Below, piece by piece: positions 8,740 through 55,173 of a DNA stretch of 55,173 nt. Made by a program: the position numbers and the translations under genes. Location: positions 1 through 55,173 of the IMG/VR virus record IMGVR_UViG_3300043607_000025; one strand, written 5' to 3'. The DNA is from a virus (lineage: Duplodnaviria > Caudoviricetes). The notes under the pieces were generated by a model that was not told the DNA's origin, searched no databases, and saw only the letters and a list, made by a program, of their open reading frames with translations. Each line of letters opens with the position of its first letter. Position 1 is the first letter of the stretch.

Positions 8740-9624
8740 ATGAACACCGTGCTGCAAGATCGCATCGAACGGTTGCCTGCGATCAAGCTTTACAGCGGCT
8801 CGCACGAACCTCCGACAAACGGCATCCAAGCCTGCGCGATGGAATTGGTCTCCTGGATTGCCGGCGAACCGTGGTCAGCCCATCCCGAGTGCGCGTGCCC
8901 GGTTATTGGCTCGTTCATGCGCTCATGGAACGACGGGTTGCCCGACGATGAGCGCACCACCCTCCTCCTGCCGCTGATCCCGCGACTAGTCGGTACGCGC
9001 GGCAGCAAGGCGCTGGAGGAACGGCGCTCGCTGATGGCCGGCGATTGGCTGGTGCGGGTGAATACCCCGGCGTGGTTGCGATTGGTGGGGCTCACCGTGC
9101 ATGCCGACGCGCTCGCGTCACTTCCGGAGATTATCTCACTCAAACAAGTCCCGTCGATCAAAGGGCCGATTGAAGCCGCGCGTGTAGGTGCGGCCGCAGC
9201 GGGGGCCGCAGCGTGGGACGCAGCGTGGGCCGCAGCGGGGGACGCAGCGAGGGCCGCAGCGGGGGCCGCAGCGTGGGACGCAGCGTGGGACGCAGCGTGG
9301 GCCGCAGCGAGGGGCGCAGCGAGGGCCGCAGCGAGGGCCGCAGCGTGGGACGCAGCGTGGGACGCAGCGAGGGACGCAGCGTGGGCCGCAGCGTGGGACG
9401 CAGCGGGGGCCGCAGCGGGGGCCGCAGCGTGGGACGCAGCGAGGGCCGCAGCGGGGGCCGCAGCGGGGGCCGCAGCGTGGGACGCAGCGTGGGACGCAGC
9501 GAGGGCCGCAGCGGGCAAAAAACTATTGCCCGTCAAGGCCGAGCTACAACAGTCAGCGATCAAGCTGATCGAGCGCATGATTGCAGCCACGTCGGCCAAA
9601 GCATCCGTGGAGTTGGCACCATGA
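8740..9624 (+). CDS. Ala/Trp repeat protein (xAAx tetrapeptide repeats)
   Basis: [26 protein letters not shown]-terminus followed by 27 tetrapeptide repeats. Confidence 0.8.
9193..9516 (+). repeat. 27 x 12-nt tandem repeat G(A/C/G)CGCAGCG(T/A/G)GG
   Basis: Counted directly; in frame within 8740..9624. Confidence 0.95.
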
Positions 9625-10703
9625 CGATGATCCTAACCTACAAATACAGGATCAAAGATCGTTCATCGCGCAAAACGCTGCAACGGCATGCTTTTGCTTG
9701 TAATCAAGTCTGGAATTGGTGCGTCGCCCAGCAACGCGACACCGAGGCACGCTATCGGGCAGGCGCTCCTAAACGTAAATGGGCGTCGAATTTCGATCTA
9801 CAAAAGCTCTGCAAAGGCGTGGGCACCGAACTGGGCTTGCATCAGCAGAGCGTCAACGATGTCTGCCGCGATTTTGCCAAAGCGCGCGACAAGGCCAAGC
9901 ACGCACCACGCTTCCGGTCGAGCTTTGGTGCTCGGCGAGCGTTGGGCTGGATACCCTTCCAGAGACAGAGTCGTCAAACCTGCGGGAACAGCATTACCTA
10001 TCTCGGCAAGCGCTACCGCTTCTGGGAAAGCGACAGGCCGCTACCCGAGAACGCCAAGGGCGGATGCTTCGTCGAGGATACGCTTGGCCGCTGGTACGTG
10101 TGCTTTTACATTGAGGTTGATCTACCTGCAGGCGGCAATGACGCGATCGGCGTTGACCTTGGCCTGAAATCGCTGGCGACGCTCAGCGATGGCCGCAAGA
10201 TCGAGGCGCCGCAACACTATCGGCAGCACGAGCAACGCCTGGCTTTGGCGCAGCGCGCCAATAATAAGCAGCGTACCCGGCGCATCCACGCCAAGATCAA
10301 GAATTGCAGACGGGATTTTCTGCACAAGGAAACGACGAAGCTGCACCGCGAACACGCGCTCATCGCGGTCGGCAATGTCAACGCACAACAGCTCGCAAAG
10401 ACGCGGATGGCGAAGTCCGTGCTCGATGCCGGCTGGTCTGCTTTCCGCTCCATGCTGAAATACAAATCAGCGGGATATGTGGAGGTAGACGAAAAGTTCA
10501 CGACCCAAACCTGTTCGACGTGCGGATCACTTCCGCCTTCGCGGCCGAAAGGTATCGCAGGCCTTGGAATAAGAGCGTGGGACTGTTCCGACTGTGGCGC
10601 GAGCCACGACCGCGACGTGAACGCGGCTCGGAATATTCTCGCGCTCGCGCTCAGTGTCGAGCGTCCTGTTGAGGAAAGCCGGAGGGCAACATGCCACGGA
10701 TAG
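9621..10703 (+). CDS. tnpB: TnpB-family RNA-guided nuclease (solo, no TnpA)
   Basis: TYKYRI, IGVDLGLKSLAT, TTQTCSTCG...WDCSDCG, DRDVNAARNI. Confidence 0.9.
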   Translation: MTMILTYKYRIKDRSSRKTLQRHAFACNQVWNWCVAQQRDTEARYRAGAPKRKWASNFDLQKLCKGVGTELGLHQQSVNDVCRDFAKARDKAKHAPRFRSSFGARRALGWIPFQRQSRQTCGNSITYLGKRYRFWESDRPLPENAKGGCFVEDTLGRWYVCFYIEVDLPAGGNDAIGVDLGLKSLATLSDGRKIEAPQHYRQHEQRLALAQRANNKQRTRRIHAKIKNCRRDFLHKETTKLHREHALIAVGNVNAQQLAKTRMAKSVLDAGWSAFRSMLKYKSAGYVEVDEKFTTQTCSTCGSLPPSRPKGIAGLGIRAWDCSDCGASHDRDVNAARNILALALSVERPVEESRRATCHG

Positions 10704-30701: not shown

Positions 30702-31108
30702 CAGGCGATCACCCTCTGCTCGGCCTCAAGCGTCCAGGCCACCTCGGCCGCCCACTCGTCACGCGACGTGTTCCAGGACGTCACCTTGGCCAAAATAGTC
30801 AGCACCTCGCCTGCGCCATCGGTGCCGCCGCTGCCGAGGCCGGGGATGCATGTGATGGTGACATCCATTCCCGGCCACACATCGGTGAGCTCGGGCGCCT
30901 CGTGATCGGTGCAGGTGATGCTGACCTTGTGCTGCCGGAACTGCGCGACAGAGATGTCGGCGAGCTCGCCCCGGCAATCGCGCGCCAGGCTTTTGGCCTG
31001 GTCGATCGGCGCCAGCGTCATGGTGATGCCGCGCACAGCGTAAGATGAAAAATCGATGTCGTCGATTGTCAGCAGCGTGTAGGGCGGACGGGTGGGATCG
31101 AGTGGCAT
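30701..31108 (-). CDS. Putative distal tail protein
   Basis: 135 aa directly after the tape measure. Confidence 0.6.
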   Translation of the reverse strand: MPLDPTRPPYTLLTIDDIDFSSYAVRGITMTLAPIDQAKSLARDCRGELADISVAQFRQHKVSITCTDHEAPELTDVWPGMDVTITCIPGLGSGGTDGAGEVLTILAKVTSWNTSRDEWAAEVAWTLEAEQRVIA

Positions 31109-34100
31109 CAGGAGTACCGGCTCGGCTTCCGGCCGCCCGATCTGATTTGGCTCATCGCCGAGGCCCGCCGCAGCGCCTCGACCGCCCGCTCGTCCGTGTA
31201 TGCGACCACCGTCCCGCCACCCGGCAATCCCAGCTCGAGCCGGCCAAGGTTGCGCGGAATGCCACCTCCGCCGCCACCGGCGAAGGCCGGAAGCGCCATC
31301 GGCCCCATCGCCAGCCCGCCGAGCGCGAAGCCGCCCATGCCGCCGAGCCGCAGCGCCTCGAGCAGTTGCAGGACGCCGGGCCGCTGCACCGCGTGCGCCG
31401 GGACGATGTACTCACCACGACTAAGCCAGGCCAAGTTGGAATCGCTCGTCCCCGTCCCGCGGCCGCCGAGCAGACCGCCGCCAGCTTTGCCGCTAGCGCT
31501 CGTCAGCTTGCCGGCATCATTCGCTATGCTCTGCAAGACATCGATCGCCTTACCCAGCGTCTCGTCTATACCCTTGGCCATTTTATAGACATCCCAGCCA
31601 ATTTTATTCAGATCATCAAATACTTTGAATGCCACGCCTTTAAGTGCTTCATTTATGCTCCCCTGGGCATCCATGCCGGCTTGCGCCGCGCTCTTGATGA
31701 TGTCGAACACCCGGTGCAATTTCTCAGGCAGGCCGGACAAAAAACCGGACATTTGGGAGGAGCTGACCTCGCCGCCGCTGGCATAAGCCGGTATCAGGCC
31801 GCCAGCCGCATGCCCTGCGAGACGCCCGGAACGGCGCAACGCCTCGAGAAATGCCAACACGCCGGGCTGCTGCACCACACGCGCCGGGACGATGTATTCA
31901 CCGCGCGAGACCCAAGCCAAATTGCTGTCCGACGTGCCGCTGCCCCGCCCGCCGAGCAGGCCGCCACCGGCCATACCTTGCGTGGCGGGTGCGGCATCGG
32001 ACGACGACCCGCCCCCTTTGCCGCCGAACAGCTTCGCCACCATTGCATTCCAGGCATCCACGACCCACTGCCATGCATTGGCGATCGGCGTCGTGACCCA
32101 TGCGGTGAGCGCTGCCGTGGCCTGATCAATGGCGGTTTTGACACCCGTCACGGCGCCGTTGAACGTGTCCACGACCCACTGCCATGCATTGGCGATCGGC
32201 GTCGTGACCCAGGTTTGAATGAAGCTCGCCAAGGACTCGGATGCCTCTGCGATCAATCCCACAACCGCATTGAATGTGTCGACAATCCACTGCCAGGCAT
32301 TCGCCACCGGCGTCGTGACCCATGCGGTGATGAGGGCCGGGGCAGCACTTATTGTTTGTCCGAGCAATGCGATGGCGGCGTTGAAAGTATCAACAATCCA
32401 CTGCCAGGCATTACCAACCGGCGTCGTAACCCATCGCTCGATGAAACCGGGTTGGGCTTGTCCCTCGACCTCCCCGAAAACCGCGTTCCATTTATCGACG
32501 ATCCACTGCCAGGCCTTCGCCACCGGCGTCGTAACCACTCTATTGATGGTTCCAGCCAGCCGTTCTACCGCCGGCTGCAGCATCTTCATCCACGCGATCC
32601 AGGCATTCGCCACTGGCGTCGGGACAAATGCCGCAACCAGGCTCGCGGCCTTGCCGGCGAGTTCCGAGAACTGTCGGCCGAGTTCCTGCCAGAACGCCAT
32701 GGTCGACACCGTCTTGCCGATCTTGGTGCCGACCTCGAGAATGGAGGCACCGAGATTGACCCAAGCGGCCTTCAGTCGTTGCTGTCTGACGATCTCGGCG
32801 GCTTGCTCGTTCGCCAGATCGATCTGCTTTTGCTTGAACTCTTCGAACTTATCCGCCGGCGGGAACAGCGCATCCCACGCCTTGCTGAGCCGCAACGAGG
32901 CATCCTCGAGCGCCTGGGTGCTCTCCTTGACCTTGTCGAAATTGGCGGCCGTCTCGGGGCCGATGGCCACGCCGCCTTCGCGTATTTTCTGGAATAGGTT
33001 TGGTATTCGTCCGAGCGTGTCGGCGACGTTGCTGGCTTCGCTGCCGTACTGGCGGATGCTGTTGACGGCGGCCTCGTCAATACCGAACTGCTTGCCGATG
33101 GCGAGCGCATCCTTGATGTCGGTCGCGGTGGCAATGATCTGAACGAGGGCCTGCACAACGCTTGCACTGCTGCCTTCCGCCTGCTCCGCCACACCCCGCA
33201 ATGCGATCTGAACGGCCGTTATTTTTCTTTCCGCCGTCACCGCTTCGTCAAACTTGATGTCCTTCTGCCCTGCGATAATCTTGTCGACCTGCTCAACAAC
33301 CGTAAACAACGAGGTGGCTATCGCCTGGGCCCGCGCCTTCTGCGCGTCGGCCGCTGCGGTCGCGGCATCGGACGTCGCCCGCTGGGCGTCCTGCACCGAT
33401 TTCTCGGCCGCCACCCGGCCAGTCGTTAATTCAAGAAGCTGCTTGTCGATGTCGGCCAGCTGCCGGGCTGCGCCATAGGGGGCGCGCGCGCCGCCCTGCT
33501 GCTCCAGCTTGATCTGCGACTCCAGCAGCGCCTTCTGGGTCTCCAGCACCCGCTTGTTGGCGGCGTCGACCTTGTTGGATGCGTCTTCGATCTCATTGGC
33601 CGAGGCTGTCAAAGCCCTACCAATGTCGAGCAGGGACATCTGCCTTGCTATATTATCGACGACCTTGCCGAACGTCTCTGCGCCAATGCCAAGATGCTCA
33701 AACGCCTGCTGTCCGATTTGTAGTTCGTGAATGGTCTCGCCAGTAGCCTCGGACAGGTTGATCAGGTTCTCGTAGAGCCGCGCGCCCGCCAAGCCGCTCT
33801 CTGAAAACGCGCTGCCCATCGACTTCGCGGCCTTGGCGACGTCTTCGGCGGCCTTCGCTGCCGACGACGAGACTTTGGCGATGCCTTCAGAGGCTCTTAC
33901 GATGCTGTCGGTAGAACTATCAAAGACCCCGGCGAGCTTGGCAGTCTCGGCGTTGAGCTTGGCAATCTCGGCCTGGGCCTTGTTGTACTCGAGGGAGGCC
34001 TTGACGATCGCGTCGCTCTGTTCCGCAATGCGTGGACTAAGAGCGCCGCTGACGGTCTTGCCCAATACAAGGGCGAGAAATCCAAGAGCAGCAAGCGCAA

Positions 34101-34734
34101 GCCCTATCAGCGCAACTGCCTTGCCGGCACTTGCCGTCGCTTCTTCAAGTGCCGCGGCGGTTTGGCCGACTGCCGCGCCGGTCTTGACGGCCTCCAGGGC
34201 GAACAGTGACCAGAACCGAACCGCGTCCTGCGCCGCCGCGCCAGACTGAGCGACTTGTCCCGAGGCCTGCTCGGCAGCCCCGCCTGCCTTGACCATGCCT
34301 TCGGCGGACTTTTCCCCCGCTCCACCGAGCGCAGTGAGATGGTCGGCCACTGGCGGGGCACTCTGGGCAATCTGGCCCAAACTCTCGCCTGTCCCCTTGG
34401 CCGCCTCTCCGACCACGGTGACGCCTTCGGCCGCCTTCGTCCCGTCCTTGCCGACCTTGGCCAGCCCCTCGCTGGTCGCATCGGCGGCCTGGCCGACCTT
34501 TTCGAGAGCGGGAGCCGCCTTCGATCCGGCCTCTTCAATCTGTGCCGCGAAGCTCTGCATGGCCTCGGTGGCCGCGGCAATCGCTTGCGCGAACTTGGCA
34601 AAAGTGTCGCCGCCGATCTGCTGAGCTGCGTCGTGGATCTGGTTGAGCGATTTCTCGCCAGCCTTGCCCATATCCTCGAGTTGCTTCTGGACCTCCTCGC
34701 TGCCCTCAAGGCTGATGCGCTGCTTTATGGCCAT
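31108..34734 (-). CDS. Tail tape measure protein
   Basis: 1208-aa Ala-rich helical protein; WVTTPVANAWQWIVD repeats; two AGGG..G.GT.TSDS..A.LS.GEYIV motifs. Confidence 0.88.
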   Translation of the reverse strand: MAIKQRISLEGSEEVQKQLEDMGKAGEKSLNQIHDAAQQIGGDTFAKFAQAIAAATEAMQSFAAQIEEAGSKAAPALEKVGQAADATSEGLAKVGKDGTKAAEGVTVVGEAAKGTGESLGQIAQSAPPVADHLTALGGAGEKSAEGMVKAGGAAEQASGQVAQSGAAAQDAVRFWSLFALEAVKTGAAVGQTAAALEEATASAGKAVALIGLALAALGFLALVLGKTVSGALSPRIAEQSDAIVKASLEYNKAQAEIAKLNAETAKLAGVFDSSTDSIVRASEGIAKVSSSAAKAAEDVAKAAKSMGSAFSESGLAGARLYENLINLSEATGETIHELQIGQQAFEHLGIGAETFGKVVDNIARQMSLLDIGRALTASANEIEDASNKVDAANKRVLETQKALLESQIKLEQQGGARAPYGAARQLADIDKQLLELTTGRVAAEKSVQDAQRATSDAATAAADAQKARAQAIATSLFTVVEQVDKIIAGQKDIKFDEAVTAERKITAVQIALRGVAEQAEGSSASVVQALVQIIATATDIKDALAIGKQFGIDEAAVNSIRQYGSEASNVADTLGRIPNLFQKIREGGVAIGPETAANFDKVKESTQALEDASLRLSKAWDALFPPADKFEEFKQKQIDLANEQAAEIVRQQRLKAAWVNLGASILEVGTKIGKTVSTMAFWQELGRQFSELAGKAASLVAAFVPTPVANAWIAWMKMLQPAVERLAGTINRVVTTPVAKAWQWIVDKWNAVFGEVEGQAQPGFIERWVTTPVGNAWQWIVDTFNAAIALLGQTISAAPALITAWVTTPVANAWQWIVDTFNAVVGLIAEASESLASFIQTWVTTPIANAWQWVVDTFNGAVTGVKTAIDQATAALTAWVTTPIANAWQWVVDAWNAMVAKLFGGKGGGSSSDAAPATQGMAGGGLLGGRGSGTSDSNLAWVSRGEYIVPARVVQQPGVLAFLEALRRSGRLAGHAAGGLIPAYASGGEVSSSQMSGFLSGLPEKLHRVFDIIKSAAQAGMDAQGSINEALKGVAFKVFDDLNKIGWDVYKMAKGIDETLGKAIDVLQSIANDAGKLTSASGKAGGGLLGGRGTGTSDSNLAWLSRGEYIVPAHAVQRPGVLQLLEALRLGGMGGFALGGLAMGPMALPAFAGGGGGGIPRNLGRLELGLPGGGTVVAYTDERAVEALRRASAMSQIRSGGRKPSRYS

Positions 34735-36797: not shown

Positions 36798-37256
36798 TTA
36801 TAGGTCCTTTATTTTGAGTGAGTATTTGAACATGAACTGCGCACGCAGAGCGCCCTGCAGCGAGCGCCCCCAGCCTAGGTCGGTCTGGCAGCCAAGGTAG
36901 CGGATCGCGCCGTTGCCGAACCTTCCGGTCCTCACGATCGTCTCGTTCAGCGCTGTATCGGTCAGCACCCGCCGGATCAGCTCGCGCCGCAGGGTGGTGA
37001 GCTCGGACCCGACCTCGTCGGCTTGCTGCGCGATGACGATCTCGGGCTGCATGCGCACGACGGTCGGCCGGTTGGCGGGCCGCATCGACAGGTCGGACGC
37101 GTCGTCGGTTTCCTCGTCGCCATCGAACACGATCGCGGCCGGCAGCTTGTCTTCCGGGATGTCGGGATCGTTGCGCAGCGCCGAGCGGATATTCGGAATG
37201 CCGGCGACCACCTCGAGCAGGCGCGCCAGGATGTCCTCGCGGACGTCGATGCTCAT
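36798..37256 (-). CDS. Tail terminator-like protein
   Basis: REDILARL...[11 protein letters not shown]; directly before the tail tube gene. Confidence 0.7.
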
Positions 37257-38461
37257 CGCGCCCTTCTGGCTGAAATGTAACCAGTCACGTTCACCGACCC
37301 GCCGCCGAAGGTCGCCTGCGCCACCAGGTAGACATTCTTCTGGGTGGCCGAGTTCGATGTGCACTGCCCGGTCGGGTACACCTGCCGCTTGCCCGACGTG
37401 ATCGAGCTGGACCAAATCTCGGCCAGGGTGCCGAACCCGATCGTAATGTCATTGTTCGACGGCAGCGTAGCCGGCGTGCCGCTGATCCCGGCCGACAATG
37501 AGTTCGGTCCGGTGGACGTCGGCGTGAAGATGACGCAGCCCCAGATGCCCCAGTCGCCCGGCGGCAGGATCAACGTGGTGACGTTGGCCGACACGGCTGT
37601 GACGAGATTAAAACCGACAGTGTTGCTGGCAGTGAGGTACTCGCCCTTGTCGCCAGCAGCTGCCGGCGACCCGTCGATGACGCCCTTGGTAGGCGCTGGG
37701 ACGAAGATCAGGTTGTCGGTGCCGAGCCTGGCTGAGTTTCCAGCATTGGCGCTGACGGCCGACGGGCCTGCCGGTCCAGTCGCACCGGCCGATCCTGGCG
37801 CGCCGGGAACGCCCTGCAAACCCGCATCGCCTTTGTCGCCTTTTGGTCCTTGCGAACCAGTCTGGCCGGCGGCGCCGACGTCGCCCTTGGGACCTTGTGG
37901 GCCGGCGGCTCCTGCATTCCCCTGCGGACCAGGCGTGCCTTGTGGGCCTTGTGGTCCCTGTGCGCCCGGCTCACCTTGCAGCCCTTGCGGCCCGATCGGC
38001 CCCGGCTCGCCCTGCGGGCCTTGTGGGCCGGGCGTTCCTTCCAGCCCTGGCGCCGTGAGCGTGCCGCTGACAGCGAGGTCGCCGTTGAGTGTGATGTCGC
38101 CGTTTATCGTGCCGCCTCTATGCACGTTGAGGTCGGCAGCACCGGCGACGATAGACGCGCGAGCCGCACCTTTGAGCGGAAGCTTGGCCTGACTGATCAC
38201 GCCGCCGATCGAGGAATAACGCACGTACTCGCGTGTAAACTCGCAACTCTGCGCGCTGCAATTCCGCGCTGTCGCCTCGACGAGTTCGAAGTCGCTGCCT
38301 TCCTCGAGCAACAGGGTAACCGGATCGCCATCGCGCACGCCGGCATCATAAGGGCGCATATAACGTGGGTTTGGATCGGTCACCTTAACCGGGCCGATGC
38401 CCAAGGTCGCCGTCGGGCACTCGACGCGATCGAACGGCGTTCCAAGAACCACGGCCATCAA
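37253..38461 (-). CDS. Collagen-like (Gly-X-Y) virion fibre protein
   Basis: About 30 GXY triplets and a C-terminal fibre-like domain. Confidence 0.75.
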
Positions 38462-43867: not shown

Positions 43868-44231
43868 CGTTCGGCATCACCAATCGAAACGACTGCAGTC
43901 GCACCGGGCTGTTGCGGAAGATTCTGGTCGTGTTCAGCTTGATCACCGCGTCAGAATTCTCGTCGCCGACATCGCAGGAAAAGACCGGGCTGCCATCGGC
44001 TGCCGTGATGCGCGCGCCTGTTGCATTGCCTTGCGCCACTGCGGCGTCCTCCTCGGCAATCCTGTTGAACACCAGCTCACCGCCGACCGCTTCCTGGGCG
44101 GCCGGATTGGACAATGGCAGCACTGCCAATGTGCCGGTGTCCGACAGCAGCTCGATGCTGCCGCCGTTCATCATCTCGGCGAGCACGTCGAGCATGGCAT
44201 TACTCGCCGCCTCGGACAGGTTGACGATCAT
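43857..44231 (-). CDS. Putative head decoration protein (paralog)
   Basis: [23 protein letters not shown]. Confidence 0.65.
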
Positions 44232-44737
44232 GGCTCGTAGACCGGCACAAAGGCGCCGCTATCGTCGCGATCGATGCGCGTGACCCTGGGGGCCGGCGTT
44301 TCACGTGACACAATCGGCGGCAGCTCGTGCAGCAGGCGGGCCGCGCTCGCAACCTCGACGGCGAGTTCGGGCGGCAGCACGGCCGCCGCCACATTGGCCA
44401 GCGCTTCACCGACGCACTGTTGCACGATCGGCGTCAGCGGCTCGACCACGCCATCGGCTCCTTTCTCGCCGGGCGCCCCTGGGCTTCCTGGCGGCCCTGG
44501 TGGCCCTTCCGGCCCGAGATCGCCCTGCGGCCCTGGCAGTCCCTGCAGGCCTTGCGGGCCGCTTTGGCCTTGCGGCCCCGGCTCACCGGCGTCGCCCTTC
44601 TCGATCGGCCGCGCCTCGATCTCGGCCAGGCGCGCGGCGAGCGGCGCCAGCGCATCGGCCATGACGGTCGCAGTCTGCTGTTCGTGATCGGCGAGCAACT
44701 CGCCCAGCACTTTGGCCCAGTTTATTTGGTCAGTCAT
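44228..44737 (-). CDS. Collagen-repeat protein after the portal gene
   Basis: GAGGTG RBS; GXY stretch. Confidence 0.7.
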
Positions 44738-44773: not shown

Positions 44774-44788
44774 GACGACGCTGTGCGG

Positions 44789-44903
44789 GACTTGACGCGA
44801 CGCGACGTGACAAGACGCGAATAGACGTGGCGAGGCAGGGCAAGACACGGTAGGGCAAGGCAAAGGATGGCGGCCGAGATGTGTCCCAATCATTTCGGTC
44901 GCC
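44789..44903 (+). ncRNA. Candidate stand-alone guide-like RNA: 15 x (GAC/GGY)-NN array plus 3' hairpin
   Basis: Unbroken 5-nt period over 44789-44863; hairpin 44869-44903 with G-U pairs on the + strand, then a T-run. Confidence 0.65.
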
Positions 44904-44910
44904 ACTTTTA

Positions 44911-51977: not shown

Positions 51978-52466
51978 CTACACCACCGGTACGCTTTGGC
52001 GGGTGAGTTCCATGGCAATGACGTGGGCTCCTGCTATGGCCCGACGGTAGAACGTGGACCGGGACCACCGGCGCAGCTTTAGCAGCCTGGACAGAGATCG
52101 CTGGTAGGCAGCAGCCGCAGCCAAATGGCTGAGGCACAGCCGTTCCTCGGGATATGGGGCCAAAATGGCGAGCCAGTCGTGCGCCTGTTCCATCCTGCTG
52201 ATATCGATGGAGGAACATCCAAGCCGCGCATTTTCCCAAGCATGAAATCTTTCCTTTCGATCGTCGTCCGCACGGCCAACGATGTCGGAAAATTCGGTCG
52301 CCATCGGTGGCCACGCGCTGGCAATCAACAAACGGCGGCGCGCGTGCGGCAACCGGCGCTCGACAGTGTAGGCCTCGACGAGCCGCTGCTGTACCCAGTC
52401 GGCGGACCATGCCGCTGGCGTGACGGCGCGGGATGCGTCGATCGCGATGGTGCTCAGGCGGGGCAT
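51978..52466 (-). CDS. Putative late-gene regulator (DUF6362-like)
   Basis: W..DWV..RL.EA..ERRLP; C-terminal SRSTFYRR HTH-like; last early gene before an AT-rich late promoter region. Confidence 0.6.
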   Translation of the reverse strand: MPRLSTIAIDASRAVTPAAWSADWVQQRLVEAYTVERRLPHARRRLLIASAWPPMATEFSDIVGRADDDRKERFHAWENARLGCSSIDISRMEQAHDWLAILAPYPEERLCLSHLAAAAAYQRSLSRLLKLRRWSRSTFYRRAIAGAHVIAMELTRQSVPVV

Positions 52467-52473
52467 CGTTGCA

Positions 52474-52986
52474 TCACGCGGCGGCGGGCGGGACTGCTGC
52501 ATTGCGCGGTGGTGGTTCCTTCTGCGCCATTGTTTGCAGCCGGCCAAGCAGCACCATGGTCGCGTCGAGCGCGGCTTGGAGTTCGTCTTCGAGATCCAAC
52601 GCCTTCGCTACATTTTGCGCGCGCTCGAAGATGGATCGCACGCGCTCCACCTCGGCCGCCAATACATCGGCGGATGCGCTTTCCTCGGATCGGATTCGAG
52701 CGATAGCACGATAGCCTTGGAGCGGAGCCACATCGGGGTCGCGGACATATCCCACGACCGAGAACTTTTGTTTTTCGACCGTCATCACCACACGCACACT
52801 TGAGATCAAATGGCGGGCTTGGTCGAGCCGGTAGTTGGCGGCGGCCTTGGTGTTGTCCCACTCGAAATCCTTGTGCAGCGGGTGCTTTGGATTGCGGGCG
52901 GCTTCGACGACGTGGGTCGGCGTCAGGCAGCCGTGCTTGTTCTCCAGCGCGCGGAGGGCGGCGATTTTGACTTTCATGCTGCTCAT
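52474..52986 (-). CDS. Putative accessory protein of the RAMP/repeat locus
   Basis: LTPTHVVEAARNPKHPLHKDFEWDNTKAAANYRLDQARHLI; GGAG RBS just after the array hairpin. Confidence 0.75.
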   Translation of the reverse strand: MSSMKVKIAALRALENKHGCLTPTHVVEAARNPKHPLHKDFEWDNTKAAANYRLDQARHLISSVRVVMTVEKQKFSVVGYVRDPDVAPLQGYRAIARIRSEESASADVLAAEVERVRSIFERAQNVAKALDLEDELQAALDATMVLLGRLQTMAQKEPPPRNAAVPPAAA

Positions 52987-53005
52987 TGATTGCTCCGTTG
53001 CGAGG

Positions 53006-53032
53006 GCCGAGACCGGGGTCTCCGATCTCGGC
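53006..53032 (-). other. 11-bp hairpin at the 3' end of the repeat RNA
   Basis: GCCGAGATCGG-agacc-CCGGTCTCGGC; one pair is U-G on the minus strand only. Confidence 0.75.
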
Positions 53033-53043
53033 TTTGTTGTTTG

Positions 53044-53301
53044 GTCACGTCAGGTCTCGTCAGGTCACGTCTGGTCGCGTCACGTCACGTCTCGTCGGGT
53101 CGCGTCACGTCGTGTCATGTCACGTTGGTCTTGGCTCGTCGTGTCAAGGCCCGTCAAGTCGCGTCACGTCACGTCTTGTCGTGTCACGTCTCGTTGGTCT
53201 TGGCTCGTCGTGTCAAGGCTTGTCGCGTCGCGTCACGTCTCGTCAGGTCAGGTCTAGTCCGGTCAGGTCTAGTCCGGTCTAGTCCTGTCCCGTCACGTCC
53301 C
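53044..53301 (-). ncRNA. Candidate guide-RNA array: 50 x NN-GAC units in three blocks (21/13/16) split by CAAC
   Basis: Parsed base by base: 46 GAC and 4 GCC constant triplets; starts 2 nt after the RAMP-like stop codon. Confidence 0.75.
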
Positions 53302-53303
53302 GA

Positions 53304-54146
53304 TTACTTCGCACCAACACCGTTGCCGATGTGCTCCTCGCCCGGCAGCGGTGGTATTGCTGGCTTCTTTCGCTTCGTGGATGTTGCCGGCCGCGCCACG
53401 CGGGTCACCTGCTCGGCCAGGAACCGGGTCAAGAGGTTTTCGGTCTCGCGGTCGTAAAACTGCGGATCGGCGAGCGCATTGTCCTGCGCCTTGGTGGCTC
53501 CGAGCTTGACGATCTCGTGCCATTCCCGGTCGTCCTCCGAGCACACCCGCCAGCAGCCGAATGCCATCTTGCCTTTTTGTGGCCGGCCGTCGCCGACGCC
53601 GATGATGATGCCCGCAGCACCCAGTAGGTTGCCGACCGATTGAGATTTGATCAGAGCTGTTGGAAACATCACGGTGATCCTGGTGGCCCATCGCGGAAGG
53701 ATGGGAAGCGTCCGCACATCCGGCGTGCGCTTCATGTCACTGGAGCGAACGATGGTGCTGTAGATCTGCGGCACACCCCAGACCGGGATCTTGAGGCCAG
53801 GCACGCGCGTGAGCCGGCCGATCTGCGACTTGGTCGCGCCGACGATGTCGATGGCAACGTCGGCGATCGCCGCATGGAAGCTGCCGGCCGGCATGTACAG
53901 CCGCGTCGGCGCATTGTCGTCGTCGCGGAATTGATAGGCGGCGTCGCGGAACTCGTCGAACGGCTCGTGTTTCTTCGACGATGCACGCTCGGCCGCGTTC
54001 TTCCGGCCGGGTGGGTCCAACAGCGCTCCGGCCGCCTTAGCGCTCACGGCATGTGGCACAAGCGGCGATGTGCCGACGAGACAGAAATCCATGCTCGTCA
54101 TTTCGATTTCGGTGATTGTGATGTTGGTTTCCTGATTTTTAGCCAT
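53304..54146 (-). CDS. Stand-alone RAMP/Cas7-like protein
   Basis: Beta-1 LVGTSPLVPH, LYMPAGSFHAA, R..P....W strand, C-terminal Gly-rich loop AGIIIGVGDGRPQKGKMAFG. Confidence 0.7.
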   Translation of the reverse strand: MAKNQETNITITEIEMTSMDFCLVGTSPLVPHAVSAKAAGALLDPPGRKNAAERASSKKHEPFDEFRDAAYQFRDDDNAPTRLYMPAGSFHAAIADVAIDIVGATKSQIGRLTRVPGLKIPVWGVPQIYSTIVRSSDMKRTPDVRTLPILPRWATRITVMFPTALIKSQSVGNLLGAAGIIIGVGDGRPQKGKMAFGCWRVCSEDDREWHEIVKLGATKAQDNALADPQFYDRETENLLTRFLAEQVTRVARPATSTKRKKPAIPPLPGEEHIGNGVGAK

Positions 54147-54179
54147 TCGCGAACTTCCTTTGTTGGGTTGGTGGGGTGC

Positions 54180-55173
54180 TCATGAGTAAGCCCCGGTGTC
54201 GTAATCCGTTGACCGATATTTCCCCGTCGCGAGGTTGTATTGGAGGCCGAGTTTGCAGGGGTAACCGAGTTCATCGAACCGGGCCTTGCGGTGGTAGAGC
54301 ACAGCCTCGGTCTTGCGGTTCACACCGTCGAAAATCTCAGGCCGGTGCACGACGAAGCCCTGGTCGACCATATTTTCCCAATGTTTGGCGCCGGCGATGT
54401 CTTCGAGGCCTGGGGGCCCGCCGCGCCGATTGCCATCCATTTTTGCTGGGTGAGCTACGATCTGGACGTGGCAATTCATGTCATTCGCGAACACGTACAT
54501 CGCGCGCAGGCAGCGCGCGATGTACTCATCCTCGCGTTCGTTTCGCTCCCGCGAACCCTCGAGCCTATTCCAAGGATCGAGCGTGATCACCTTGGCACCA
54601 TGGCGCACGATGGCGATTTCGGCGAGGTCCAGGAACCATTCGAGAGTTTGTCGGTGCTCTGGGTGGACGGCGAAAAGGTAGTGCTCGTTGATCCAGCCGT
54701 CGGCCTTGCGCTTGTCATCGTCGTCAAGATCGCGCTCGTGCCTGCCCATGATGAGCGTACGAAGTTGTTTGCGCATGTGCGGCTTCGGCCGTGTCTCGAA
54801 GGTCGCGGCGAACAACACCAGGCGATAGGCTTGGATGATCTGAAACCAGATTTGCGTCCAGAGCATTGTTTTACCCATGCCAGCGTGCCCGGTGACGACG
54901 GAAAGCGTACGCGGCGCGAGCCTGATTTTGCTTTCCCACTCCGAAAATCCTGGGTCCCACAGTGTCAGCGCTGGGGGCTCGGGGAGTTCGCCGAGGCGGT
55001 AAAGCCCGGCGACTGGCCACTGCAGCGACCCTTCGGTTACGAGGTCGCGTAGGTCGCGCGCGCCTTCGGTGCGCAGGACATCGTTGGCGTCCTTGCAGCC
55101 TTCCGGCCAATCGACAAACCAGAACCGTGCCGCACCGAGTAACCTGGCCATGTCAGCGCGGAGTGACAGGCCG
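54180..55173 (-). CDS. Primase-helicase, 3' part (SF4/Twinkle-like helicase)
   Basis: KDAND (Toprim), Walker A TGHAGMGKT, Walker B VITLDPWN, VAHP, IAGA. Confidence 0.88.
   Translation of the reverse strand, partial: GLSLRADMARLLGAARFWFVDWPEGCKDANDVLRTEGARDLRDLVTEGSLQWPVAGLYRLGELPEPPALTLWDPGFSEWESKIRLAPRTLSVVTGHAGMGKTMLWTQIWFQIIQAYRLVLFAATFETRPKPHMRKQLRTLIMGRHERDLDDDDKRKADGWINEHYLFAVHPEHRQTLEWFLDLAEIAIVRHGAKVITLDPWNRLEGSRERNEREDEYIARCLRAMYVFANDMNCHVQIVAHPAKMDGNRRGGPPGLEDIAGAKHWENMVDQGFVVHRPEIFDGVNRKTEAVLYHRKARFDELGYPCKLGLQYNLATGKYRSTDYDTGAYS
54983..55173. repeat. Terminal direct repeat, right copy
   Basis: Matches 1-191 with one mismatch. Confidence 0.95.

Follow-up and report, generated by a model that had tools for sequence, protein, structure and literature searches.

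A GAC/NN pentamer array beside a Vipr-like gene in a 55-kb soil phage genome: a probable guide-RNA cluster of the VIPR type

Introduction

Near one end of a 55-kb soil phage genome, at positions 53044-53301 on the minus strand, fifty five-base units follow one another, each made of a nearly constant triplet and two variable bases. Such an array could be a gene for guide RNAs, an RNA with some other role, a set of sites in the DNA, or a product of replication slippage. An earlier note on this DNA had read it as a multi-guide precursor with constant and variable parts. We followed up that reading across the window, by which we mean the whole stretch of DNA analysed, an entire IMG/VR virus record of 55,173 bp.

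The closest published comparison is VIPR, an RNA-guided silencer of DNA that is related to CRISPR and was introduced in preprints of 2026. As set out in the available text of the first of these, VIPR consists of a minimal RAMP protein, Vipr, and of vrRNAs, each with 9-16 pentamers of a constant GGY and a hypervariable NN in alternation and then a 3' tail. The system reads double-stranded DNA through the NN bases, with a 1-nt skip that falls mostly at the codon wobble position; it is directed at competing phages and satellites and results in transcriptional silencing. The same text distinguishes seven types, mentions accessory vap genes and 'staggered' arrays, gives NNNGG, YNNNG and NNNNG as alternative repeats, allows that the constant triplet may be 'a related consensus' to GGY, and accepts targets at a threshold of 80% or more NN match (10.64898/2026.04.26.720920). 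In the structure, as reported, there is one Vipr protomer per repeat, and in SUSP1 Vipr H17 and D177 read G1, R138 and W178 read G2, and a narrow pocket holds Y3 (10.64898/2026.04.26.720927). Two further preprints bear on the window locus in the parts available: one lists, among 99 clusters with five-nt periodicity, 21 with non-canonical fixed triplets, 'e.g. GAC/NN or CAC/NN', and a Vipr-like fold nearby (10.64898/2026.10.21.760802), and the other describes solo vrRNAs, encoded apart from vipr (10.64898/2026.10.15.759431).

Results and Discussion

Anatomy of the main array

Read on the minus strand, both directly and by script, the main array resolved into 50 units of NN plus a triplet; the triplet was GAC in 46 units and GCC in the other 4, each with its two variable bases. 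The units formed three blocks of 21, 13 and 16, with CAAC between neighbouring blocks. Block 1 (53197-53301; 19 GAC and 2 GCC) starts 3 nt past the stop codon (53304-53306) of the vipr-like gene described below and is on the same strand as that gene. It is followed by the first CAAC junction (53193-53196), block 2 (53128-53192; 13 pentamers, 11 GAC and 2 GCC), the second CAAC junction (53124-53127), and block 3 (53044-53123; 16 pentamers, GAC throughout), after which the minus strand continues with CAAACAAC. The script reproduced exactly the order of NN pairs that the earlier note had listed for all three blocks, and it confirmed the proposed three-block grammar with a phase-breaking CAAC, each CAAC shifting the pentamer phase by -1. 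The variable positions held 14 of the 16 possible dinucleotides, TC and TG being absent when counted from these lists. The motif (GACNN)x3GAC had 34 occurrences in the window, where 0.01 were expected, and at most one in any of 100 dinucleotide-preserving shuffles; 31 of these occurrences were in the main array and 3 at 44789-44816 on the plus strand.

Blocks 1 and 2 had also been said to share a 28-nt end containing all four GCC units, and this proved correct. The 28-mers at the 3' end of block 1 (53192-53219, minus strand) and at the 3' end of block 2 (53123-53150, minus strand) are identical, all four GCC units of the main array are inside them, and the identity is sharp, with 0 nt of extension on either side. 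The 28-mer keeps the pentamer phase (GCC TT GAC AC GAC GA GCC AA GAC CAAC G). We read block 1 as candidate vrRNA 1, with 16 variable units and then 5 constant 'handle' units; block 2 as candidate vrRNA 2, with 8-9 variable units and then handle units as in block 1; and block 3 as candidate vrRNA 3. Judged from this anatomy, the constant 28 nt that close blocks 1 and 2 would be a handle, and the CAAC junction with its -1 phase would be the boundary of neighbouring guides.

Directly 3' of block 3, and just upstream of the GGAG and ATG of a 170-aa gene, lies a hairpin with an 11-bp stem (53006-53032, minus strand). The RNA fold of 52990-53060 (minus strand) had a minimum free energy of -24.7 kcal/mol and a z of -2.84, and 2 of 200 shuffles folded equally well. 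The T-run of the hairpin is on its plus-strand side only; the hairpin may be a 3' tail. The 28-mers had no significant fold of their own (z 0.05 for block 1 and 0.08 for block 2). An Rfam scan of 52300-54300 revealed no hammerhead and no other family, its two matches both having E above 0.5, and no sigma-70-like promoter was found.

The 280-aa protein upstream of the array

The gene immediately upstream (53304-54146, minus strand) encodes a protein of 280 aa, predicted to consist of a RAMP/Cas7-like core at about residues 12-211 followed by a helical C-terminal extension. No Pfam, NCBIfam or PADLOC model matched it, and its single PHROG match was phrog_4652, of 'unknown function'. The AlphaFold model (pLDDT 88.6, pTM 0.81) gave 42 Foldseek matches in the PDB at E<=1e-3, of which 6xn3_F was the best (E 3.7e-5); those listed were RAMPs of the Cas7 family (Csm3, Cmr4, Cas7-11, type VII). 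When the model was compared by VIA-align, the top 18 rows were all CRISPR RAMPs, with 6s6b_I the best (Z 9.0, rmsd 4.1, 155 residues aligned). The model shows the features expected of a stand-alone RAMP, namely a predicted RRM core, a glycine-rich loop and a thumb. The glycine loop reads G183-V-G-D186-G187-R188-P, and in a family alignment of 51 sequences G179, G183, G185, G197 and R188 were invariant.

Homology to an experimentally validated Vipr was found by hhalign, in which the family alignment A1 matched SUSP1 Vipr (agp039) with a probability of 96%, E 4.6e-9 and 166 columns, covering residues 16-201 of the 280-aa protein and 1-187 of SUSP1 Vipr. In this alignment GVGDGRP stands opposite GVGDWRP and H32 opposite H17. 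The SUSP1 residue W178, which stacks on G2, corresponds to G187 in the 280-aa protein, and the middle letter of the constant triplet is A here as against G in SUSP1. This loop change from W to G beside a triplet change from G to A may bear on how Vipr proteins choose their repeat, although the link is not general among GAC-type Viprs. The idea that this G-loop residue covaries with the repeat letter was rejected; among other GAC-type Viprs the residue there is W, F or M.

The subfamily of the 280-aa protein is large, numbering 5057 representative clusters when E<=1e-3 is allowed and 582 when E<=1e-30 is required. A search of viral contigs with the 280-aa protein as a single query returned 0 loci, tblastn found nothing in 50,697 phage records, and a profile search of genome contigs with alignment A2 gave one locus in a remote archaeal MAG.

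Recurrence of the arrangement in viral contigs

Viral contigs were scanned for eight consecutive GACNN units, which gave at least 133 stretches in at least 103 distinct groups. Among the matches listed, 54 groups were plain microsatellites with a single NN, and 49 were degenerate arrays in which GAC was kept and NN varied; the latter spanned 36-70% G+C. Arrays of one locus were nearly always on the same strand in the matches listed. The ORFs flanking the 49 degenerate arrays were clustered after exclusion of ORFs that overlapped arrays. The dominant superfamily comprised 22 groups in one cluster and 7 groups with clear homologues of the 280-aa protein, so that a Vipr-like ORF stood beside the array in at least 29 of the 49 groups among the matches listed. 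This figure is a lower bound, because about 50 of the at least 133 loci had flanks of 300 nt only. A hidden Markov model built from 120 homologues of the 280-aa protein matched 20 of the 49 groups and linked both flank clusters. In the 49 groups together with the window, block size had a median of 10 units (interquartile range 8-13, n=177), and -1 was the commonest junction phase (36 of 86 junctions). There was no bias towards a 3' hairpin across the GACNN loci (30 of 78 array clusters, p 0.14).

These data bear on the simplest explanation of the array, a neutral pentanucleotide microsatellite arising from replication slippage. The 54 single-NN groups among the at least 103 in the scan speak for it, and duplication does occur at the window locus, as is evident from the duplicated 28-mer and from the higher-order period of 69 nt that Tandem Repeats Finder reported on the main array beside periods of 5, 10 and 15. 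But slippage copies whole units, whereas in this array NN takes 14 values beside a triplet that stays the same in 46 of 50 units, and the same grammar stands beside the same protein family in unrelated phages. We therefore give slippage hardly any credence.

The GAC strand was the strand of the Vipr-like gene in 24 of the 29 groups, as in SUSP1, and the opposite strand in the other 5. The opposite-strand groups were L010, L045, L051, L055 and L073; such loci represent either convergent transcription or GUC/NN repeats on the vipr strand. In the groups with a Vipr-like ORF, arrays commonly lay 2-20 nt from it on the same strand.

T7-type primases recognise 5'-GTC-3', the complement of the constant GAC, and a primase/helicase gene (phrog_239) lies two genes upstream of the array. 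The array might therefore act at the DNA level, as primase sites on the plus strand or as a protein-binding origin or centromere, and serve a primase-helicase like T7 gp4; the GTC recognition, the nearby gene and an array orientation that is not absolute relative to vipr all favour this idea. It is nevertheless very improbable, since the recurrent neighbour is a RAMP-fold protein and no primase was among the top flank clusters of the 49 groups listed, since the arrays mostly lie 2-20 nt from vipr on its own strand, and since blocks of about 10 units match vrRNAs. A primase-site array and a TRAP-like RNA target were both early ideas, dropped once the RAMP protein emerged as the recurrent neighbour.

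On the other side of the main array from the vipr-like gene is the 170-aa gene (52474-52986, minus strand), a candidate accessory (vap-like) partner. Its product matched phrog_15946, 'unknown function', and was modelled with a pLDDT of 87.5; fold searches returned a generic helical hairpin alone and no recognisable DNA-binding fold. Among the matches listed, homologues adjoined GACNN arrays in four groups of viral contigs (L051, L073, L106 and L122). Judged from the anatomy of the locus, this neighbour may be an accessory protein.

Target searches and occurrence in soil

The earlier note had found no self-target by eye. This was borne out by a search of the phage's own genome under skip rules 0-3, in which nothing matched at 80% or more and the best match had 23 of 32 bases. 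Gapped searches of viral and metagenome contigs, by which the same note had proposed to check its guide reading, gave chance-level matches only. These seed scans, run under the 1-nt skip rule, required 9-10 perfect units, a much stricter demand than the published threshold of 80% or more NN match, and so had far lower sensitivity. In viral contigs, units 1-9 of block 3 gave 5 seeds and units 8-16 of block 3 another 5, none of which extended; units 1-9 of a second array, described below, gave 1 seed, which did not extend; and block 2, units 9-17 of block 1 and units 7-15 of the second array each gave 0 seeds. At the viral seeds, matches over the full guides amounted to 20-23 of 32 and 21 of 30 bases, so that the seeds were judged not to extend. 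Metagenome contigs gave 18 seeds under the same rule, the best with 27 of 32 bases, in a bacterial ORF of housekeeping type that we take to be AmmeMemoRadiSam-B-like. We attribute this match to chance: with 18 seeds, an extension that fits at 7 of 12 bases falls short of significance.

When skip rules 0-3 were compared with 122 guides from 50 sources against 0.53 Mb of loci, the mean best fraction was 0.690-0.697 with no difference between rules, the database being too small for the purpose. The NN composition likewise did not discriminate between codon-position models.

The region 52400-54200 was present in soil metagenome runs of 17 studies. In three soil DNA runs the array was identical save for one change at 53266, an NN base; in a second soil sample this change was the sole difference over a contig of 1140 nt. 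One soil RNA library yielded contigs covering 52916-53066, 53301-53452 and 53500-53656, with the body of the array uncovered, and DNA carry-over is possible. These contigs show presence in an RNA library, short of transcription.

The lack of any target in any search, the slippage-like near-repeats inside block 1 (TA CG TA CT CG TA CT CT) and the near invariance of the array among soil samples would all suit an RNA that is produced and becomes coated with the Vipr-like protein yet guides nothing to DNA, whether it serves as a scaffold for autoregulation or packaging or comes from a decayed array whose guides have lost their matches. Against this stand the high diversity of NN, with 14 of 16 types, and the homologous SUSP1 system, which according to the available text is a proven DNA-targeting guide system (10.64898/2026.04.26.720920). 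The absence of targets weighs little because the seed scans, with their 9-10 perfect units, were insensitive. We consider an RNA without a guiding role improbable, if less so than sites in the DNA, and return to the guide-RNA reading.

Relation to VIPR and to class 1 CRISPR systems

Taken together, the results make it very probable that the array encodes the guide RNAs (vrRNAs) of a phage VIPR system, and that this system belongs to the non-canonical GAC/NN type. We assign the locus to VIPR because a gene with the predicted RAMP fold lies directly upstream, because its product is homologous to SUSP1 Vipr, and because the same family stands beside arrays in at least 29 of 49 groups. The earlier reading of the array as a multi-guide precursor thus gains support from homology, from the modelled fold and from recurrent synteny. 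As in VIPR, pentamers of NN and a constant triplet adjoin vipr on the same strand; the blocks have 21, 13 and 16 units, as compared with the published 9-16. The canonical constant triplet GGY is not that of the main array (GAC in 46 of 50 units and GCC in 4 of 50). This difference bars the canonical subtype only, because GAC/NN is already named as a non-canonical VIPR spelling in the available text of the cluster survey (10.64898/2026.10.21.760802). By that account the window locus is a real element of a known kind.

The GAC/NN arrays of that survey (section 2.3) share with the window locus the fixed GAC, the variable NN, about 10 repeats and a Vipr-like fold nearby, and they likewise come from metagenomic and viral DNA. 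As presented in the available text they are computational clusters without anatomy, whereas the anatomy is given here for the window locus (10.64898/2026.10.21.760802). Relative to that text, the three-block layout, the CAAC junctions with their -1 shift, the pentamer-phased 28-nt end, the long Vipr of 280 aa and the second array are described at the window locus only. The locus offers a fully mapped natural example of GAC/NN VIPR in a complete 55-kb soil phage; the map places the guide blocks exactly and includes the 28-nt end, the -1 junctions, the distal array and a candidate partner gene.

The type II VIPR of the Escherichia phage SUSP1 (Vipr YP_009199429.1, vap1 and four vrRNAs), as described in the available texts, has a homologous Vipr and is phage-borne like the window locus (10.64898/2026.04.26.720920, 10.64898/2026.04.26.720927). 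In the SUSP1 record itself we could place both the GGYNN arrays and vipr. In both phages the arrays are on the vipr strand and adjoin the gene, the number of repeats per block is similar, and a small gene is a neighbour. They differ in the constant triplet (GGY in SUSP1, GAC here), in the G-loop (D-W-R in SUSP1, D-G-R here) and in the length of Vipr (195 aa in SUSP1 and 280 aa here, the excess being the predicted C-terminal helical extension). The SUSP1 vrRNAs are also described as each having a pseudoknot-forming tail of about 40 nt, whereas the blocks of the window abut through a 4-nt junction. In this respect the main array is like the 'staggered' vrRNA arrays of other VIPR types, which according to the legend of fig. 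S18 have no long spacers and are offset by 1 nt at the guide boundary, as compared with the -1 phase shift per junction in the window (10.64898/2026.04.26.720920). As candidates for the structured 3' tail of VIPR there are hairpins after block 3 (z -2.84) and after the second array (z -3.93), and the 28-mers of blocks 1 and 2 were unstructured (z close to 0).

With the Cas7 backbone of class 1 CRISPR systems (Csm3, Cmr4, Cas7-11) the 280-aa protein has in common the RAMP fold as modelled, with its RRM core, glycine loop and thumb-like hairpin, and, if the VIPR structures as reported are a guide, the use of one protomer per periodic segment of RNA. The systems differ in period, which is 5 nt with 2 bases read in the window and 6 nt with 5 bases read in Cas7. 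They also differ in that a class 1 CRISPR-Cas locus has a repeat-spacer array and further cas genes. No CRISPR-like repeat-spacer array was found in the 55-kb genome, and no further cas genes appeared in the PHROG annotation of its 48 ORFs.

If the locus works as the SUSP1 and P. fulva studies would predict, the minus strand would be transcribed with or behind vipr, and the transcript would be cut into about three vrRNAs with some 16, 8-9 and 16 variable units. One Vipr protomer would then cover each pentamer, burying the constant GAC and presenting the two variable bases; the NN bases of the resulting filament would pair with double-stranded target DNA, every third target base being skipped, and the outcome would be gene silencing in a competing phage, prophage or satellite. 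The skip of every third base, which the earlier note had also suggested, is here taken by analogy from the VIPR literature. With GAC in place of GGY, the only constant triplet tested biochemically, and with G187 in place of W178, the skip rule could differ at the window locus.

A more far-reaching suggestion is that the long Vipr subfamily (about 250-300 aa) with its D-G-R loop and GAC/NN repeats is a mechanistically distinct class of VIPR. Its reading of the constant triplet would dispense with the tryptophan that SUSP1 Vipr stacks on G2, and a pentamer-phased handle and a -1 junction would delimit the guides in place of a pseudoknot tail. The spacing of target bases might also differ, which could explain why the searches under a 1-nt skip were empty. 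We consider a distinct class, with these handle and spacing features included, doubtful, and prefer the assignment to the known GAC/NN type.

Second array and genome setting

The window contains a second, solitary pentamer array on the plus strand (44787-44861), with 15 units (8 GAC, 5 GGC, 1 GGT and 1 GAA). At a distance of 8 kb from vipr, it occupies the interval that separates the portal gene from a collagen-like gene, and it resembles the solo vrRNAs as these are described in the available text (10.64898/2026.10.15.759431). Immediately 3' of it is a hairpin (44862-44909, plus strand) with a 14-bp core stem between an A-tract and a U-tract; its RNA fold had a minimum free energy of -26.8 kcal/mol, which none of 200 shuffles equalled. 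This hairpin could alternatively be the terminator of the portal transcript.

By PHROG annotation the genome is that of a temperate siphovirus, with integrase, RecT, methyltransferase, tape measure, portal, capsid-protease, TerL, TerS and HNH genes. The order on the minus strand is primase-helicase, the 280-aa gene (53304-54146), the main array, the 170-aa gene (52474-52986), a DUF6362 gene, HNH, TerS and TerL. The primase-helicase gene (phrog_239) is divided between the two ends of the record (2-706 and 54180-55172), its parts being 2 bases out of register at the junction; from this split we conclude that the genome is circular (closed) or circularly permuted. The nearest TerL proteins, with 51% identity, were those of Roseibium and Agrobacterium phages. 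The DUF6362 protein is encoded at 51978-52547, just upstream of HNH, TerS and TerL. DUF6362 domains are found in late-gene or gene-transfer-agent activators of Alphaproteobacteria, which would agree with the Roseibium and Agrobacterium relatives of TerL.

Several other repeats were seen in the genome. At 9192-9513 there is a tandem repeat of 12 nt, GGCCGCAGCGTG, in about 27 copies. It is in frame with the ORF 9213-10703, where it encodes (V/E/G)GRS about 25 times and varies only at the middle base of one codon; the C-terminal part of this ORF matches the transposase family phrog_506. The tape-measure gene (31108-34734) has five repeats of 111 nt, one of them of 105 nt, and collagen-like G-x-y repeats occur in the tail-fibre gene (37253-38461) and in a 169-aa gene (44228-44737).
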